Shown here piece by piece: positions 4,676-63,907 of a DNA stretch of 64,000 nucleotides (positions are counted from its first letter, which is position 1; each line of letters starts with the position of its first letter). The DNA comes from a virus. Below the pieces are notes generated by a model, which was not told where the DNA came from, searched no databases, and was given only the letters and a program-made list of their open reading frames with translations. The position numbers and the translations under genes are program-made. The stretch is taken from positions 96,001 through 160,000 of the IMG/VR virus record IMGVR_UViG_3300027861_000011; one strand, written 5' to 3'.

Positions 4676-5065
4676 ATGGCTGGTAATGGTAAATTTATAA
4701 ATATTGCGTTTCCGTTTAAGGAAAGTAGTAGAGGTGACTTTTTAGAACTTAATAATATCGATAAATACGCAATTAAATCTGATTTATTACATTTACTATT
4801 AACCAGGAAGGGTGAACGACTATATTTACCAGATTTTGGTACAGACCTCATTAAATACATTTTTGAATTAAATGATGAAACTACTAAAAATAATATGAAA
4901 AAAGATATTAGCGCAACTGTTATAAAATATTTACCTAATTTACAAATAGATGAAATAACTGTAAAAGAAAATGAACTAAGTGAATATGGTGTTACAGTTA
5001 AAATTGATTATACAATAACAGAAGATGTGTTTAAAGAAACTGACTTCGTAATTATAGAATTATAA
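4676..5065 (+). CDS. Baseplate wedge protein, T4 gp25/GPW-like
   Basis: IKSDLLHLLLTRKGER.Y.PDFGT motif, typical ~130 aa size. Confidence 0.85.
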   Translation: MAGNGKFINIAFPFKESSRGDFLELNNIDKYAIKSDLLHLLLTRKGERLYLPDFGTDLIKYIFELNDETTKNNMKKDISATVIKYLPNLQIDEITVKENELSEYGVTVKIDYTITEDVFKETDFVIIEL

Positions 5066-31164: not shown

Positions 31165-31196
31165 TTTGTTTTATTGATTTAAATGTCGTATATTTG
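31165..31196 (+). promoter_or_regulatory. Bacteroidetes-type promoter TTTG-N20-TATATTTG
   Basis: Upstream of primase. Confidence 0.65.
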
Positions 31197-32876: not shown

Positions 32877-32917
32877 TATAAATATGTTGTACTTTTATTA
32901 AAAAGTCCGTATATTTG
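32877..32917. promoter_or_regulatory. Divergent promoters: minus-strand TATTTATA (32877-84) and plus-strand TATATTTG (32910-17)
   Basis: Between the divergent ART-like and PD-(D/E)xK genes. Confidence 0.55.
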
Positions 32918-38671: not shown

Positions 38672-38703
38672 TTTGCAAAATATTAAAATTATTAGTATAT
38701 TTG
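38672..38703 (+). promoter_or_regulatory. Bacteroidetes-type promoter TTTG-N20-TATATTTG
   Basis: Upstream of 38728. Confidence 0.7.
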
Positions 38704-55155: not shown

Positions 55156-55186
55156 TTGACATGTAATTTGTTTTATGGTATATTTG
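55156..55186 (+). promoter_or_regulatory. Promoter TTGACA-N17-TATATTTG
   Basis: Fits both sigma70 -35/-10 and Bacteroidetes -33/-7; upstream of 55229. Confidence 0.75.
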
Positions 55187-55228: not shown

Positions 55229-56677
55229 ATGAATAAATTAATCGATACCCTAAGAACTAAAGATACCACTACAACCAATGGTATGACAACTAATTCAACA
55301 ACACTTAATAGCTGCGTGGATTTATTTTTCCAAATTGGAGCTTTAAGAGGTCAAGATAAACAAAAGAAAATTAACGCCTTTTCGAAAGCATTTGCTGAAG
55401 ATTCATTGACAGCAATGAGGATACTTTTCTGGGTTAGAGATATTAGAGGCGGTGCTGGTGAAAGGGGTACATTCAGAGATATAATTACTTACCTTGCTAA
55501 TTCTAGAACAGAGACTCTTAGAAAGAGCCTTCCACTTATATCAGAGTATGGTAGATGGGATGATTTACTTGTTTTAATTGATACTAAACTTGAGAAGGAC
55601 GCACTCACTGAAATAGCTTCTGCTCTTGAGAATGGTAATTCATTAGCGGCTAAATGGATGCCAAGGGGTAATGGTAAGAATAGAGAAAAGAAAAGATGGG
55701 CTAACGCCTTAAGAAAACACTTAGGTCTTACACCTAAGACTTATAGAAAAATGCTTTCTGAATTATCTAACACTGTTGAGCAATTGATGTGCGCTAAGAA
55801 GTTCGATACAATTACATATTCACACGTACCATCAAAAGCTATGTCTGATTATATGAGAGCATTCTCTAAGAATGATGGTGAGAGATTCCAAACTTATATT
55901 GAATCCTTATCCAAGGGTGAAACTAAGATTAATACTGGTGCAATATATCCGTATGATGTTACTAAGAATCTTAGACTTGGACATGCAGCTGGTGCTATTG
56001 AACAATGGAAATCTTTACCTAATTATATGAAAGATAGTAAGGAAAGAGTTCTACCAGTGGTAGATGTTTCTGGCTCTATGGAATGTCCAGCTGGTAATAA
56101 TGATAATATTAGCTGCATGGATGTTGCTATATCATTAGGTCTTTATATTTCAGAAAGAAATGAAGGACCATTTAAAGATGCGTTCTTTACGTTTCATAGT
56201 TCGCCAGAACTAGAATATTTAAGAGGAAACCTACAAGAGAGGGAGAATCAATTAAGTAAAGCTAAGTGGGGTGGTAATACTAATTTAGAAGCGACATTCA
56301 AAGTCCTTTTAGATAAGGCTAAGGGTGGTGGTGTCTTGAAAGAAGAAATGCCAACAATGATTCTAATCCTTTCGGATATGCAATTTAATCAAGCAACTAG
56401 TGATGGTTGGACCAATTCAGATTGGAACCCAACGGCACATGATATGATTAAGCAAATGTATATTAATGCTGGGTATGAAATACCAAAGGTTGTGTATTGG
56501 AATATACATGCGTCTAGTAGGAATAACCCCATTACGTTTAACGAAACCAAGACATGTTTAGTCAGTGGGTTCTCACCTTCACTATTAACTAGCTTATTAA
56601 GTGGTAGTGAAATGACCCCACTTAGTATGATGATGAATATTATAAATAGTGAAAGATATACGCCAGTAATGGTGTAA
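55229..56677 (+). CDS. TROVE-like/vWA domain protein (DUF2828-like, Ro60-related architecture)
   Basis: RDIRGGAGER, YGRWDDL, AAKWMPR N-region; MIDAS VVDVSGSM, GGNTN, LSDMQF. Confidence 0.8.
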   Translation: MNKLIDTLRTKDTTTTNGMTTNSTTLNSCVDLFFQIGALRGQDKQKKINAFSKAFAEDSLTAMRILFWVRDIRGGAGERGTFRDIITYLANSRTETLRKSLPLISEYGRWDDLLVLIDTKLEKDALTEIASALENGNSLAAKWMPRGNGKNREKKRWANALRKHLGLTPKTYRKMLSELSNTVEQLMCAKKFDTITYSHVPSKAMSDYMRAFSKNDGERFQTYIESLSKGETKINTGAIYPYDVTKNLRLGHAAGAIEQWKSLPNYMKDSKERVLPVVDVSGSMECPAGNNDNISCMDVAISLGLYISERNEGPFKDAFFTFHSSPELEYLRGNLQERENQLSKAKWGGNTNLEATFKVLLDKAKGGGVLKEEMPTMILILSDMQFNQATSDGWTNSDWNPTAHDMIKQMYINAGYEIPKVVYWNIHASSRNNPITFNETKTCLVSGFSPSLLTSLLSGSEMTPLSMMMNIINSERYTPVMV

Positions 56678-59274: not shown

Positions 59275-59466
59275 ATGTATGAAGAGAATCCAACACCACT
59301 TAGAGAATTAAAAGATGGTGATAGATTTATAACAAAATCTGGTTCGGAATTAATCTATAATTATGCTATAGATGATGATAGACATAATATAGGTATAATA
59401 AATGGAAGTTCTTGGGATGTACCTAATGGGAACTACCCAAGTTTTAAATACAAAGGAAATGAGTAA
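59275..59466 (+). CDS. Small hypothetical protein
   Basis: 63-aa ORF overlapping the dnaJ start. Confidence 0.4.
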
Positions 59467-60520
59467 AAGGGATTACTATAAAGTTTTAGGTCTTGATAAA
59501 TCAGCTAGTGATAGTGAGGTTAAGAAAGCCTATAGAAAGATGGCTATTAAATATCATCCAGATAAGAATCCAGATGATAAAGAATCAGAAAATAAGTTTA
59601 AAGAAGCTGCTGAAGCATATGAAACTTTATCTAACAAAGAGAAGAGAGAAGTATATGATGCGTATGGTCATAATGGTCCAGGTAACCAAGGTCACCAAGG
59701 TGGTCAAAATATGAATGACATATTCAGTTCTATGTTTGGTGGTAGAGACCCATTTAATAGACAAAGAGAAAGACAAAGAAAGGGACAAGATTTAATACTT
59801 AATATTAGAATTAGTCTTGAAGATATATTTAATGGCTCAACTAAGAAATTTAAATATAAAAGAAATACACCTTGTGGTACCTGTGATGGTGCTGGCGGTA
59901 AAAATGAACGAAATTGCCCAACCTGTCAAGGTAGAGGTCACGTTATAACCCACATCAATACCCAAATGGGTGTTATGCAACAAATGACCGAATGTGGTAA
60001 TTGTAAAAGTATTGGTAAGATTGTAGATGATGTATGTAATACTTGTAATGGTCATGGTGTTAATCTAAAGGAAGAAGTTATTGAAGTTAAAACACCACAT
60101 GGGGTTAGTGATTCAGACACCTTACAATACGTAGGGATGGGTCATGGAATTAAGAGTGGTCCATCTGGTAACTTATTAATTAGACTTACAACCACAAACC
60201 ATAAAGACTTTATTAGAAATGGTTATGACTTAAGATACACACTTAAATCATCTTACCATCAATTAGTATTAGGTGATAAGATAGAGGTACCAACAATTGA
60301 AGGTAGAAATATAAAAATTACTATACCAGAATATAGTAAAATAGGTGATGCACTTAGGATAACCAATAAGGGGTTAAAACATAAAAAAAGTCAAAAAAGG
60401 GGTGATATGATAATTATTTTAGATATAGAAATGCCAACAAAATTAAGTGATGTAGAGAGAGAGACTATAGAAAAATTAAAAAAAATAGGTGAAGGGGTTG
60501 AAACTTTGGAAAATGAATAA
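59459..60520 (+). CDS. dnaJ: DnaJ chaperone (type I)
   Basis: [11 protein letters not shown] motif, four CxxCxxxG Zn repeats, C-terminal GDMII domain. Confidence 0.95.
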
Positions 60521-60546
60521 TATATTTGGGTAATTAAAACAACAAA

Positions 60547-60793: not shown

Positions 60794-61225
60794 ATGGCAA
60801 ATTTTGAAGTACCTTACCCAGACACCGCAAAGATTTTTGAAGGTGCAATCGCTAAAGTTAATCTTGATAGAGTTATCAATATTGAGCTTTTAGCTGACGT
60901 TAAATCTAAAGATGTTTATAAAATCGTTAAAGCTAACGAGATTACAAAGTACGCAACTAAGAACGATGTCTATATAATAATCAATGACACAATCTTTGAT
61001 GGACTAGAAGAGTGGCAACAACTTATTATTGCTGAGGAAGCAATTACATGTATTATATTTAATGATGAGAAAGATAAGGTAGAAATTAAAAAGGGTGATG
61101 TAGGTATCACTAAGGTAGGTGCATTTTCTGGAATCCTTTCTAAATATGGTGCTGAAAGATATGAAGCAATTCAAGAAAGTGTTAAAACACTTTATAATGT
61201 TGAACAAGAAGAAGCTGAAGTATAA
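60794..61225 (+). CDS. Hypothetical protein
   Basis: 143-aa ORF. Confidence 0.5.
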   Translation: MANFEVPYPDTAKIFEGAIAKVNLDRVINIELLADVKSKDVYKIVKANEITKYATKNDVYIIINDTIFDGLEEWQQLIIAEEAITCIIFNDEKDKVEIKKGDVGITKVGAFSGILSKYGAERYEAIQESVKTLYNVEQEEAEV

Positions 61226-61518
61226 TGACTATTGAGGAAGTATCAGAATACAACGAAGAAGCATTAATCTGTGATGGCTTAGATGAAGCCATTATAGGTG
61301 TTGCTGAAAGGATAAACCTTGGACCCGTTGCTGCGTATAGTGTGGAAAAGATATTAGATATCTTAATTCCACAAATGGAACTTGACGAAGAAGACTTAAA
61401 GTTACCTATAGAAGAGCAAGAGAGTGTTTTATATGGAATGGCTATGGAACACTTTGAATATAATATTAAAGGAGCATGGATGGGAGAATTTACCCCAGTG
61501 TTTATATATACAAATTAA
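61225..61518 (+). CDS. Conserved-looking phage hypothetical protein
   Basis: DGLDEAIIG...Y....I...A.E.F.YNI.GAW.GE.TP motif. Confidence 0.55.
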   Translation: MTIEEVSEYNEEALICDGLDEAIIGVAERINLGPVAAYSVEKILDILIPQMELDEEDLKLPIEEQESVLYGMAMEHFEYNIKGAWMGEFTPVFIYTN

Positions 61519-62324: not shown

Positions 62325-62660
62325 ATGCTTATGGAAACAATAATAGTATCAGTGTTGTCAACACTAGGTGCAGTTGCTTTAGTCTCGACTATTGTGGTTG
62401 CGTTTATAAAACTGACAAAAAAAGTTGATGTTACTATTTTCGATAGAGAAATAGAAAACATTTATAATGAAGTAAATAAGAGGTTTGATAATTTGAATCG
62501 TGATTTAGAACATAATGTCACGGAAATATATCAACAAATTAATGAAGAAAATGAAGAAATAAAACGATTCATTGATTCTAGGTGTGATAAGTTAGACACT
62601 AAAATAAAAGACTTAAATAACAATAAGGTATCAAACAGTAAGCAATTACTGACTGATTAA
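62325..62660 (+). CDS. N-anchored membrane coiled-coil protein
   Basis: Hydrophobic aa 6-29 then coiled coil. Confidence 0.55.
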   Translation: MLMETIIVSVLSTLGAVALVSTIVVAFIKLTKKVDVTIFDREIENIYNEVNKRFDNLNRDLEHNVTEIYQQINEENEEIKRFIDSRCDKLDTKIKDLNNNKVSNSKQLLTD

Positions 62661-62735: not shown

Positions 62736-62766
62736 TTGACAATTAAGTAAAGTTTATGTATATTTG
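62736..62766 (+). promoter_or_regulatory. tmRNA promoter TTGACA-N17-TATATTTG
   Basis: Same architecture as 55156 and 63399. Confidence 0.75.
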
Positions 62767-62798: not shown

Positions 62799-63166
62799 GG
62801 GAATGCCTGGCTATTGACTGTTTATAGTCGTGATTAGTAAGCATACAGTGTTAGATTGGAAACACTTAAATCATCTATCACCAAGTTTAAATGACAACGA
62901 GTTTGACATTGACGAAAACTTCCTTAATACTGCTTCTGTAGAAGTAAGTGAAGGAGAGGTAGCATTTGCCTAACGAATAATGCGATGGTGGTAATCCACC
63001 GACAGCTCTTTGACATAGAGTTAAATAAATGTTCAGAAGAATAGTTATCAGTAAACCGAACTGCAATAAGGGAACTGTTAAACTTTGCTAGAATTAGAAA
63101 CTAGATAAGTATGTAGAAAGCTCTTTATGAGTAAGCAAGACGTGAGTTCGAATCTCACCATTTCCA
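62799..63166 (+). ncRNA. ssrA: tmRNA (one-piece), CCA not encoded
   Basis: Acceptor stem GGGAAUG/CAUUUCC with G3:U70 pair and A discriminator; T arm GUGAG-UUCGAAU-CUCAC; P2 pairings; UAAAU|GAC resume context; tag ORF 62893-62973. Confidence 0.92.
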
Positions 63167-63358
63167 GACTACCGAAATTAACTCACTTGCACGTAGTGGT
63201 AGTTGCACACCAGAAATGGTGACTAGGAAGTTAATAAAAAATGTGGAGACTAGGGTCTTTTCGTGGAGATGGAATTACAGAGCATTGGAAATAAGGTGAA
63301 TCTCACCATTTCTACTTGACTTTTTTGTACTTTTGTACGGAAAATAAAACAACAATTA

Positions 63359-63388
63359 AAAAAAGCTTCCAATTCGGAGGCTTTTTTT
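63359..63388 (+). terminator. Intrinsic terminator after tmRNA
   Basis: aaaaaagcttcc-aattc-ggaggcttttttt. Confidence 0.8.
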
Positions 63389-63398
63389 ATTTTATTAC

Positions 63399-63429
63399 TT
63401 GACAAATTAAAATATAAGTAGTATATTTG
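63399..63429 (+). promoter_or_regulatory. Promoter TTGACA-N17-TATATTTG
   Basis: Upstream of the FKBP gene. Confidence 0.75.
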
Positions 63430-63460: not shown

Positions 63461-63907
63461 ATGTCAGTAGTAACAGAAAAAAGTAAAGTAAAAGTACATT
63501 ACACAGGTAGATTTCCAGATGGTGAGATTTTCGATTCTTCAAAAGCAGTTGAGGGTAATGACCAATATTCAGATAAAGACCCATTAGATGTTGAATTAGG
63601 AAAGGGGTTGCTTATCCCAGGTTTTGAAAAAGGATTACAAGGTATGAAAGAAGGTGATACAAAAACAATTACCATTTCTTCTGAAGATGCGTATGGTCCA
63701 ATTCAAGAAGACCGCCTACAAGAAGTTGAAAAGTCGTTTGTACCAGATACGGTAAAAGAAGGTGAGATGCTTCAATCACAATCAGAAGAAGGGCCTATGA
63801 CCGTTACGGTTAAAGAAGTAAAAGAAAAAACAGTTGTATTGGATGCTAACCACCCACTAGCTGGTAAGGATTTAGTTTTTGAATTGGAAGTAGTAGCCAT
63901 TTCATAA
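63461..63907 (+). CDS. FKBP-type peptidyl-prolyl isomerase, SlyD/FkpB-like, no His-rich tail
   Basis: VHYTG...GEIFDSS, LIPGFE..L.GM, EDAYG, DANHPLAGKDL.F. Confidence 0.92.
   Translation: MSVVTEKSKVKVHYTGRFPDGEIFDSSKAVEGNDQYSDKDPLDVELGKGLLIPGFEKGLQGMKEGDTKTITISSEDAYGPIQEDRLQEVEKSFVPDTVKEGEMLQSQSEEGPMTVTVKEVKEKTVVLDANHPLAGKDLVFELEVVAIS

Follow-up and report, generated by a model that had tools for sequence, protein, structure and literature searches.

The 64,000-nucleotide stretch analysed here (positions 96,001 to 160,000 of IMG/VR virus record IMGVR_UViG_3300027861_000011, referred to below as the window) carries a one-piece transfer-messenger RNA (tmRNA, ssrA) of 368 nt at 62799-63166. Our overall reading, to which we give a probability of roughly 0.6, is that this is a functional phage tmRNA from a family linked to clpP, and that its tag is likeliest read by a Clp protease built on the phage ClpP. 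The reading is based on sequence comparison: structure and reading frame are kept among distinct homologues, clpP lies upstream of the gene wherever enough flanking sequence is available, and both ends of the tag appear to be selected as peptide. An earlier annotation of the same DNA, made from the letters alone (the original prediction), had described a phage tmRNA with an unusually long, acidic tag ending in -AFA, and had proposed that tagged products are sent to Lon or to the phage's own ClpP, or are spared from host ClpXP.

A complete tmRNA gene

ARAGORN calls a single tmRNA in the window (62799-63166, +), with its coding part at 62893-62973 and a tag that reads DNEFDIDENFLNTASVEVSEGEVAFA before the stop; all window features given in this text lie on the same + strand. 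The Rfam model RF00023 matches the locus end to end (62799-63169, model positions 1-374) with 56.5 bits against a gathering score of 47 (E 1.7e-19), and Infernal places the resume codon of the model on the same GAC as ARAGORN. The original prediction had given a complete tmRNA with exactly this tag and had named both programs as checks: each returns the same call. The finer details also agree with the sequence, namely the G3:U70 pair at 62801/63163, the T arm at 63142-63158, the discriminator A at 63166, the resume context UAAAU followed by GAC, and 8 acidic against 0 basic residues in the tag.

The 5' strand of the acceptor stem (62799-62805) pairs with 63159-63165. The T arm (GTGAG/TTCGAAT/CTCAC) has a TPsiC-like loop of 7 nt, there is no anticodon arm, and a long helix 2 links the tRNA-like and mRNA-like domains. 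The region of pseudoknot 1 (PK1, 62848-62877) consists of a hairpin (62848-62852/62864-62868) whose loop sequence UAGAU (62852-62856) is able to pair with AUCUA (62873-62877). The tag frame comprises 26 sense codons, starting with the resume codon GAC, and a TAA stop; within this open reading frame (ORF) lies a two-tier, helix-5-like hairpin (62920-62956), which is supported by covariation and folding. The terminal CCA is not encoded in the gene: the sequence reads ...CCA and then GAC.

Covariation was computed on an alignment of 30 tmRNA sequences, which was also used for the selection estimates given below. Compensatory changes are seen at 32 of the 45 predicted pairs, with double changes in the acceptor stem, the T arm, helix 2 and the PK1 hairpin (alignment columns 50-54/67-71). 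At pair 3:70 a G:U is kept in 30/30 sequences, whereas the adjoining acceptor pairs are doubly changed in 11-16 sequences each; in the T arm all five pairs show compensatory changes (in up to 16/30 sequences). The pairing of the PK1 loop with the downstream segment is a by-eye reading that fits the Infernal alignment, with alternative complementary pairs in the relative L035; its register differs among subgroups, so that it has no column count.

A chance match or a pseudogene is excluded, because 58 other distinct homologous sequences retain both the structure and the reading frame. It is highly probable that the gene is a genuine, expressed and tag-translating tmRNA. A blastn search with the tmRNA against GenBank phages gave no match, and an exact scan of viral contigs for its 3' end found only tRNA-Ser genes on two unrelated contigs.

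A tmRNA family downstream of clpP

ClpP of this phage has 175 relatives in IMG/VR, and a tmRNA was looked for at the best 80 of these loci. A homologous tmRNA lies directly downstream of clpP at 38 of them, many of which are missed by ARAGORN. An independent route, a strict scan for the tag pattern, yielded 56 viral contigs with a full tmRNA in 56/56. Pooling both gives a family of 95 viral loci, in which 59 different tmRNA sequences and 46 different tags occur. All 49 tag-pattern loci with enough flanking sequence have clpP upstream of the tmRNA at 84-1975 nt (44 of them within 1.5 kb and on the same strand); the other 7 of the 56 have less than 900 nt of upstream sequence. These counts indicate that, in a clade of large phages (about 190-480 kb) with probable Bacteroidota hosts, the tmRNA family has a fixed place directly after clpP. 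A full tmRNA was not found in the published 634-kb and 642-kb relatives, and the cassette is therefore not universal in the wider clade.

The tag pattern is a phage feature: in the genomes of about 185,000 species it has one match, on the 170-kb contig PLXT01000115.1 (L087/L097) of the metagenome-assembled genome Methanobacterium sp. palsa_68. This contig holds the only real tmRNA of that assembly, together with two tRNA-Met genes and a tRNA with a CUA anticodon. As archaea, to our knowledge, have no tmRNA, the contig is almost certainly a mis-binned phage.

An encoded CCA is absent from most family members, which matches the presence of a CCA-adding-enzyme family protein in the phage genome (ORF of 397 residues, record positions 166421-166789, PF01743 with 129.6 bits, ~7 kb downstream of the tmRNA).

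Several relatives show local peculiarities. L025 carries, upstream of its divergent tmRNA, a 44-nt fragment (4851-4894) that exactly matches the 5' end of tmRNAs of the L024 type (L024 4839-4882); one tmRNA allele has therefore replaced another at that locus. ORFs resembling GIY-YIG homing endonucleases lie directly 3' of the tmRNA in L026 (5512-6126) and L032 (5202-6029), and these could drive the exchange of tmRNA alleles. Amber-suppressor tRNAs with a CUA anticodon (labelled Pyl by ARAGORN) are found a few kb from the tmRNA in L047 (7492-7563) and L087 (376-448), and the tag frame of L008 stops at TAG instead of TAA. Reading of TAG as sense has been reported for Lak phages, and some relatives may do the same.

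Constraints on the tag

In all family sequences the tag has 25-26 codons, and both its resume codon and its stop fall at common alignment positions. Its consensus is [GD]-N-[DE]-F-x-[IV]-[DS]-E-N-F-L, followed by 7-9 variable residues and G-E-[VL]-A-[VLF]-A, with 4-9 acidic and 0-1 basic residues. Calling such a tag unusually long goes too far, given that the 26 codons fall inside the known bacterial range of 8-35. Among the 59 distinct sequences the endings are AVA (37), ALA (9), AFA (9), AAA (2), AYA (1) and VAA (1): the -AFA of the window is a minority variant of an A-x-A end.

Two measurements bear on whether the frame is used. Outside the predicted helices, the ratio of nonsynonymous to synonymous polymorphism (pN/pS) in the tag frame is 0.38 for the first nine codons and 0.58 for the last four, against about 1.2 in two control frames. 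Internal stops occur in 0/30 sequences in the tag frame, versus 30/30 and 28/30 in the other two. These patterns show that the tag frame is real and under purifying selection at the peptide level.

The middle of the tag behaves differently. The outer stem of the hairpin within the ORF is formed by the UUCC of the Phe-Leu codons and the GGAG of the Gly-Glu codons; L042, L043 and L020 have a compensatory TTCT/AGAG here, which changes Gly to Arg. The inner stem measures 6-8 bp, and the fold is common to 30/30 sequences (mean z -2.6). Because the ORF reads through this conserved two-tier hairpin, the variable middle of the tag is dictated by RNA. The extra length of the tag is best explained by an ORF that runs through the helix-5-like hairpin and ends four codons later. 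The short tag of the Prevotella phage Lak-C1 has a similar start and stops ahead of its hairpin, which fits the idea of ORF extension.

ClpP and its partners

The phage ClpP (61522-62250) has 242 residues with an N-terminal extension of ~55 residues, and matches PF00574 with 199 bits over profile positions 5-181 of 182. Its motifs GMAASMG, MLHQ and TRD fit a Ser-His-Asp triad; we take these to be the catalytic motifs by comparison with E. coli ClpP.

An Hsp100 protein of 710-849 residues is present in 4/4 complete relatives. Those of G001 and G002 (821 and 833 residues) have a Clp_N domain, two AAA+ modules, a short UVR-like middle domain and a VGF loop (residues 685 and 697) at the position that docks ClpP. 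By these features the Hsp100 of the relatives is of the ClpC type and not ClpB; the proteins do not reach the NCBIfam equivalog cut-off of either ClpA or ClpB. SmpB is encoded in 3/5 large relatives; in L035 and L036 it lies between clpP and the tmRNA.

Which protease reads the tag

Three observations make a phage-encoded Clp reader the most attractive hypothesis: the linkage to clpP is invariant, complete relatives have a ClpC with a ClpP-docking loop, and both tag ends are conserved as peptide. That the tag is read mainly by a protease based on phage ClpP is nonetheless favoured only tentatively, and we would put it below even odds. The original prediction had named the phage's own ClpP as one possible reader: as a candidate it is reasonable, with clpP directly upstream in every testable relative, while the step from neighbour to reader stays conditional.

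A number of points weigh against the phage ClpP as reader. Synteny with clpP does not prove that ClpP acts on tagged proteins. SmpB, a Clp/Hsp100 unfoldase and Lon (Lon_C domain) were not found in the contig, which is ~55% complete. The two closest complete relatives also have no SmpB, so that host SmpB must be used there. The two small ORFs upstream of clpP (described below) were considered as adaptors like SspB, ClpS or MecA and rejected, their AlphaFold models having no such fold. Part of the apparent peptide conservation of the tag is RNA constraint, as the F-L and G-E codons lie in the stem and the compensatory change turns Gly into Arg. The C-terminus was compared with the canonical ClpX-read degron (L-A-A or A-A) and differs from it, being A-x-A in 58/59 sequences and VAA in one. 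E. coli ClpXP still degrades ssrA variants with LVA ends, however, and by analogy host ClpXP may also read a nonpolar A-x-A end that does not differ much from such variants. Finally, the assignment of the host amounts to leads only.

Nearly as likely as the phage Clp reader is that the tmRNA serves rescue only: it would keep ribosomes free, and the host proteases for ssrA tags (ClpXP, ClpAP, Lon, FtsH) would degrade the tag. The length of the tag would then be a by-product of reading through helix 5, and the adjacency of clpP an inherited synteny within a block of proteostasis genes. This is in line with a middle third that is encoded by the hairpin and varies freely as peptide, with an RNA-compensating change that alters the peptide, with a codon number inside the bacterial range and with a nonpolar end like that of ordinary tags. 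It also accommodates the related megaphage Lak-C1, in which the tag (A)DDEIDFRMAA is short, with a similar start, and the tmRNA lies far from clpP. It leaves unexplained, on the other hand, why the N-terminal nine and the last four codons, which lie outside the hairpin, show peptide-level selection, and why clpP is linked in 49/49 loci. Moreover, ClpP identity among these phages is just 57-84%, yet their E-N-F-L core hardly varies, which suggests a specific binding partner.

An unlikely alternative is that ClpP is a virion (prohead) maturation protease, in which case its adjacency to the tmRNA would have no meaning for degradation of the tag. Some jumbo-phage proteins of the ClpP family are indeed annotated as head maturation proteases, and the N-terminal extension is unusual. 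Yet the match of 199 bits spans the whole Clp_protease profile, and the gene is located among DnaJ, tmRNA and FKBP, with the baseplate and tail genes about 30 kb away. The ClpC of the complete relatives, with its ClpP-docking loop, would have no role without a ClpP partner.

The analogy to Mycoplasma drawn in the original prediction, in which the -AFA end routes tagged products to Lon, does not hold up and is now very improbable. Lon does read the tags of Mollicutes, which are long and end in NYAFA, and the tag of the window shares the AFA. Within the family, however, this end is found in 9/59 members against a majority of 37/59 with AVA; where Mollicutes have N-Y ahead of AFA, the family has E-V or E-L, and the NYAFA motif is absent. 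The contig lacks a recognisable Lon_C domain, whereas ClpP and ClpC are both encoded in these phages. A Mollicute phage is ruled out, since genetic code 11 gives intact long ORFs. Equally improbable is a decoy or non-degradative function, in which the RNA titrates host SmpB or alanyl-tRNA synthetase, or the acidic tag marks or protects products: a tmRNA fragment of mycobacteriophage DS6A that consists of the tRNA-like domain only has been discussed as a possible SmpB titrator and the tag is unusually acidic, but a decoy has no need of an open, selected frame, which is kept in 59/59 sequences with low pN/pS, and the SmpB encoded by some relatives argues for use, not blockade.

Proposed mechanism and its meaning

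Taking the phage Clp reader as the working model, the tmRNA would be transcribed during infection, trimmed at its 5' end by RNase P and completed with a 3' CCA (a CCA-adding-enzyme family protein is encoded by the phage). Host alanyl-tRNA synthetase would charge it via G3:U70. Host SmpB (in some relatives their own) would then deliver it to ribosomes stalled on broken mRNAs, where translation would resume at GAC, unwind the helix-5-like hairpin in the ORF and add Ala plus 26 residues. The resulting tag can be divided into three parts: a conserved acidic N-terminal block, the variable middle dictated by the hairpin and the conserved G-E-[VL]-A-[VLF]-A end. Its reader would be a Clp protease built on phage ClpP, with a phage ClpC-type unfoldase (as in the complete relatives) or with an unfoldase of the host. 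Together with DnaJ and FKBP, the phage Clp protease might form the phage's own arm of protein quality control.

A further step is less certain still: it is possible, if rather doubtful, that the clade runs a private, partly orthogonal circuit of trans-translation and degradation, in which the phage tmRNA, in some members together with a phage SmpB, adds a phage degron that is read by phage ClpC-ClpP and not by host ClpXP. Specificity or adaptor binding might then reside in the acidic N-terminal block, and engagement in the A-x-A end. Such a circuit, if it exists, would not depend on the host's proteolytic capacity for removing truncated proteins, recycling amino acids and freeing ribosomes. 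This would be of use when host nucleases, or the phage's own host shut-off, cut mRNAs. The suggestions of the original prediction that tagged products are spared from host ClpXP, and that abortive-infection defences are countered in this way, are speculation.

Phage tmRNAs have mostly been listed as accessory translation genes, whereas the comparative data presented here define a testable system: two blocks of the tag are constrained as peptide and one as RNA, a phage ClpP always accompanies it, and complete genomes also have a ClpC with a ClpP-docking loop. Should the phage protease prove to read the tag, the two would form a natural viral pair of orthogonal degron and protease. It would bear on phage takeover, on ribosome rescue during destruction of mRNA and on possible resistance to mRNA-cleaving defences. 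It might also serve as a tool, as the pair of Mesoplasma florum tag and Lon already does. Even if the phage protease has no part in reading the tag, the family remains an example of how translation through helix 5 allows a tmRNA ORF to lengthen.

Promoter, terminator and 3' trailer

The promoter assigned to the tmRNA (62736-62766) consists of TTG, 20 nt and GTATATTTG (-33 TTG, -7 TAnnTTTG), a motif shared with promoters of ORFs. It can also be read as TTGACA-17-TATATT, but the former is the better reading. TTG/TAnnTTTG is the promoter type of Bacteroidota sigma-A. The promoter ends 33 nt before the mature 5' end of the tmRNA, which implies 5' processing (RNase P). Relatives of the same subclade retain TATATTTG upstream of their tmRNA.

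The window has seven + strand copies of TTG-N19-20-GTATATTTG, at 31166-31196, 32887-32917, 38673-38703, 55156-55186, 60498-60528, 62736-62766 and 63399-63429: one of them is that of the tmRNA, and the other six lie 12-47 nt ahead of ORF starts. Genome-wide there are 29 copies on the + strand and 15 on the - strand, against 12.7 in shuffled sequences. The motif helps to define one temporal class of genes and provides a clue to the host.

An intrinsic terminator with a 14-bp stem and a T run (63357-63389) closes the transcription unit of the tmRNA. The structured 3' trailer ahead of it (63167-63356, folding z = -4.43) contains a hairpin (63167-63204), an inverted copy of the tmRNA 3' end (63212-63222) and a direct copy that lacks the T loop (63295-63313). 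The last 15 nt of the tmRNA (GAATCTCACCATTTC) are found at 63150 and again at 63298; with its T stem included, the direct copy corresponds to a T arm without its T loop plus the acceptor strand. The inverted copy, AGAAATGGTGA, can pair with either direct copy. The trailer segment CCAGAAATGGTG is an ancestral terminator hairpin, which is present in L004 too. The repeat is not conserved, as it occurs here and in L031 only; since a comparable downstream remnant is confined to L031, it looks like the scar of a partial duplication or allele replacement and not like a conserved switch. Some integrating islands target ssrA, and the downstream copy of the 3' end was therefore considered as an integration (att) site. 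We rejected this as the main explanation: the copies are 148 nt apart, there is no integrase nearby and the repeat is not conserved.

Gene block, source phage and host

The tmRNA is placed inside a block of proteostasis genes in the order DnaJ, two conserved small ORFs, ClpP, a small membrane protein, tmRNA and an FKBP isomerase. DnaJ (59402-60520) is of type I according to profile search, with a J domain, a CXXCXGXG zinc finger and a C-terminal domain. The two small ORFs (60794-61518, 143 and 97 residues) are found upstream of clpP in all relatives examined. They belong to no Pfam family, and their AlphaFold models (predicted local distance difference test 80 and 82) have no PDB match at E<0.001; for the 143-residue protein the fold search gave weak zincin-like (minigluzincin-like) rows, with HEXXH absent. 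Between clpP and the tmRNA is a variable slot, which here holds an ORF for a membrane-anchored coiled-coil protein of 111 residues (62325-62660) and in L035 and L036 the smpB gene mentioned above. The FKBP-type (SlyD-like) peptidyl-prolyl isomerase (63461-63907) has its own promoter at 63399-63429.

The only other tRNA-like gene of the record is a tRNA-Ala(UGC) at record positions 162002-162078, 2.8 kb downstream of the tmRNA. A protein with a von Willebrand factor A (vWA) domain (DUF2828/DUF7788) is encoded at window positions 55229-56677. The tRNA-Ala, the CCA-adding-enzyme ORF, the vWA protein and the tmRNA block together give the region the look of an RNA and protein quality-control island.

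The source record is a linear IMG/VR virus contig of 193,838 bp with 31% G+C and a completeness of ~55% according to CheckV. It carries T4-like phage genes: a T4-type baseplate wedge, a nuclease subunit resembling gp46/SbcC, a ribonucleotide reductase and a DnaB-like helicase. The attribution to a phage, originally made from the letters of the window, is borne out by these genes and by the 193.8-kb virus record itself.

The host is probably a member of the Bacteroidota, as suggested by the promoter type and by three sets of relatives. For the phage ClpP and for the SmpB of a relative, the nearest atlas clusters are mostly from Bacteroidota. The top GenBank matches of ClpP are 630-640 kb phages and Lak phages (assigned to Bacteroidetes hosts), and distant relatives of the baseplate include Flavobacterium phages.

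Comparison with known tmRNAs and proteases

With the bacterial one-piece tmRNA (SsrA, RF00023) the phage gene shares the tRNA-like domain with its G3:U70 pair and T arm, helix 2 and, probably, PK1. The U-A at -5/-4 before a resume codon that starts with G, an ORF without start codon, a nonpolar last residue and a presumed dependence on SmpB are common to both as well. ClpXP, ClpAP and Lon all act on bacterial tags, which are 8-35 residues long. GETNYALAA, the native tag of Bacteroides, is a strong destabiliser in vivo, and the phage tag DNEFDIDENFLNTASVEVSEGEVAFA is distinct from it, in line with the contrast to Bacteroidetes tags drawn in the original prediction. In comparison with Bacteroides SsrA, the gene is phage-encoded, its tag has 26 instead of 9 codons and ends in A-[VLF]-A instead of L-A-A, and CCA is not encoded. 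It further departs from bacterial SsrA in that the ORF passes through the helix-5-like hairpin and does not end ahead of it, that the Rfam score is modest (56.5 bits) and that the tag pattern is absent from cellular genomes (about 185,000 species, the single match being a phage-like contig).

The tmRNAs of Mollicutes (Mycoplasma, Mesoplasma florum) have in common with the family a long tag (about 26-27 residues) and, in this phage, the AFA end. They differ in that the family mostly ends in AVA without NYAFA, that its tags are acidic and not rich in Asn or Gln, and that ClpP and ClpC were found in the phages and Lon was not; nothing points to a Mollicute host or to TGA being read as Trp.

Lak-C1 belongs to the same broad phage group, and the relatives of the ClpP include Lak as well as 630-640 kb phages. 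Its tmRNA (L091 1501-1897; MK250029.1 182229-182625) scores 49.4 bits, is missed by ARAGORN and lies ~55 kb from clpP; its tag, read by eye, has 10 codons and an MAA end. In G001, the closest complete relative, a second tmRNA (L106 1501-1897, contig 327939-328335) reaches 106.7 bits, encodes CCA and is more canonical, though again without an ARAGORN call. The tag of this second copy, also by eye, is (A)GNILENATVGHFVAEDAAVVA, with 21 codons and a VVA end, and the gene is not beside clpP; one phage therefore has two tmRNAs with different long tags. The tags of Lak-C1 and of the second copy in G001 begin alike, with D-D-E-I-D-F and G-N-I-L-E-N, respectively.

Cellular ClpC-ClpP systems of Firmicutes, Actinobacteria and Bacteroidota share with the relatives the Clp_N domain, two AAA+ modules, a UVR-like middle and the VGF loop, and with the phage ClpP its catalytic motifs. 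In contrast to these systems the phage pair is phage-encoded, an adaptor like MecA, McsB or ClpS was not recognised, and ClpC was not found in this incomplete contig.

Phage tmRNAs reported earlier comprise those of eight cluster C mycobacteriophages (the Bxz1 group) and of Bacillus phage G, the fragment in DS6A and the two-piece tmRNAs of Melnitz and Mosig. Like the present one, they belong to large lytic phages with their own ssrA near tRNA genes. In a survey, a tmRNA was present in 402 of 18,146 phage genomes (given as about 2.3%), with ribosome maintenance or tagging of host proteins as proposed roles. Such reports give the presence of the gene alone, or gene context and tag, as for Melnitz and for phage G, whose tag has 13 residues and a QVA end; for huge phages tmRNA and SmpB are listed without analysis of the tag, and the Melnitz paper does not mention ClpP. 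A conserved tag family, a hairpin within the ORF and an obligate position after clpP are not described in the literature searched. Phage tmRNAs are thus already known, and the ClpP-linked family with long tags is a new form of them.

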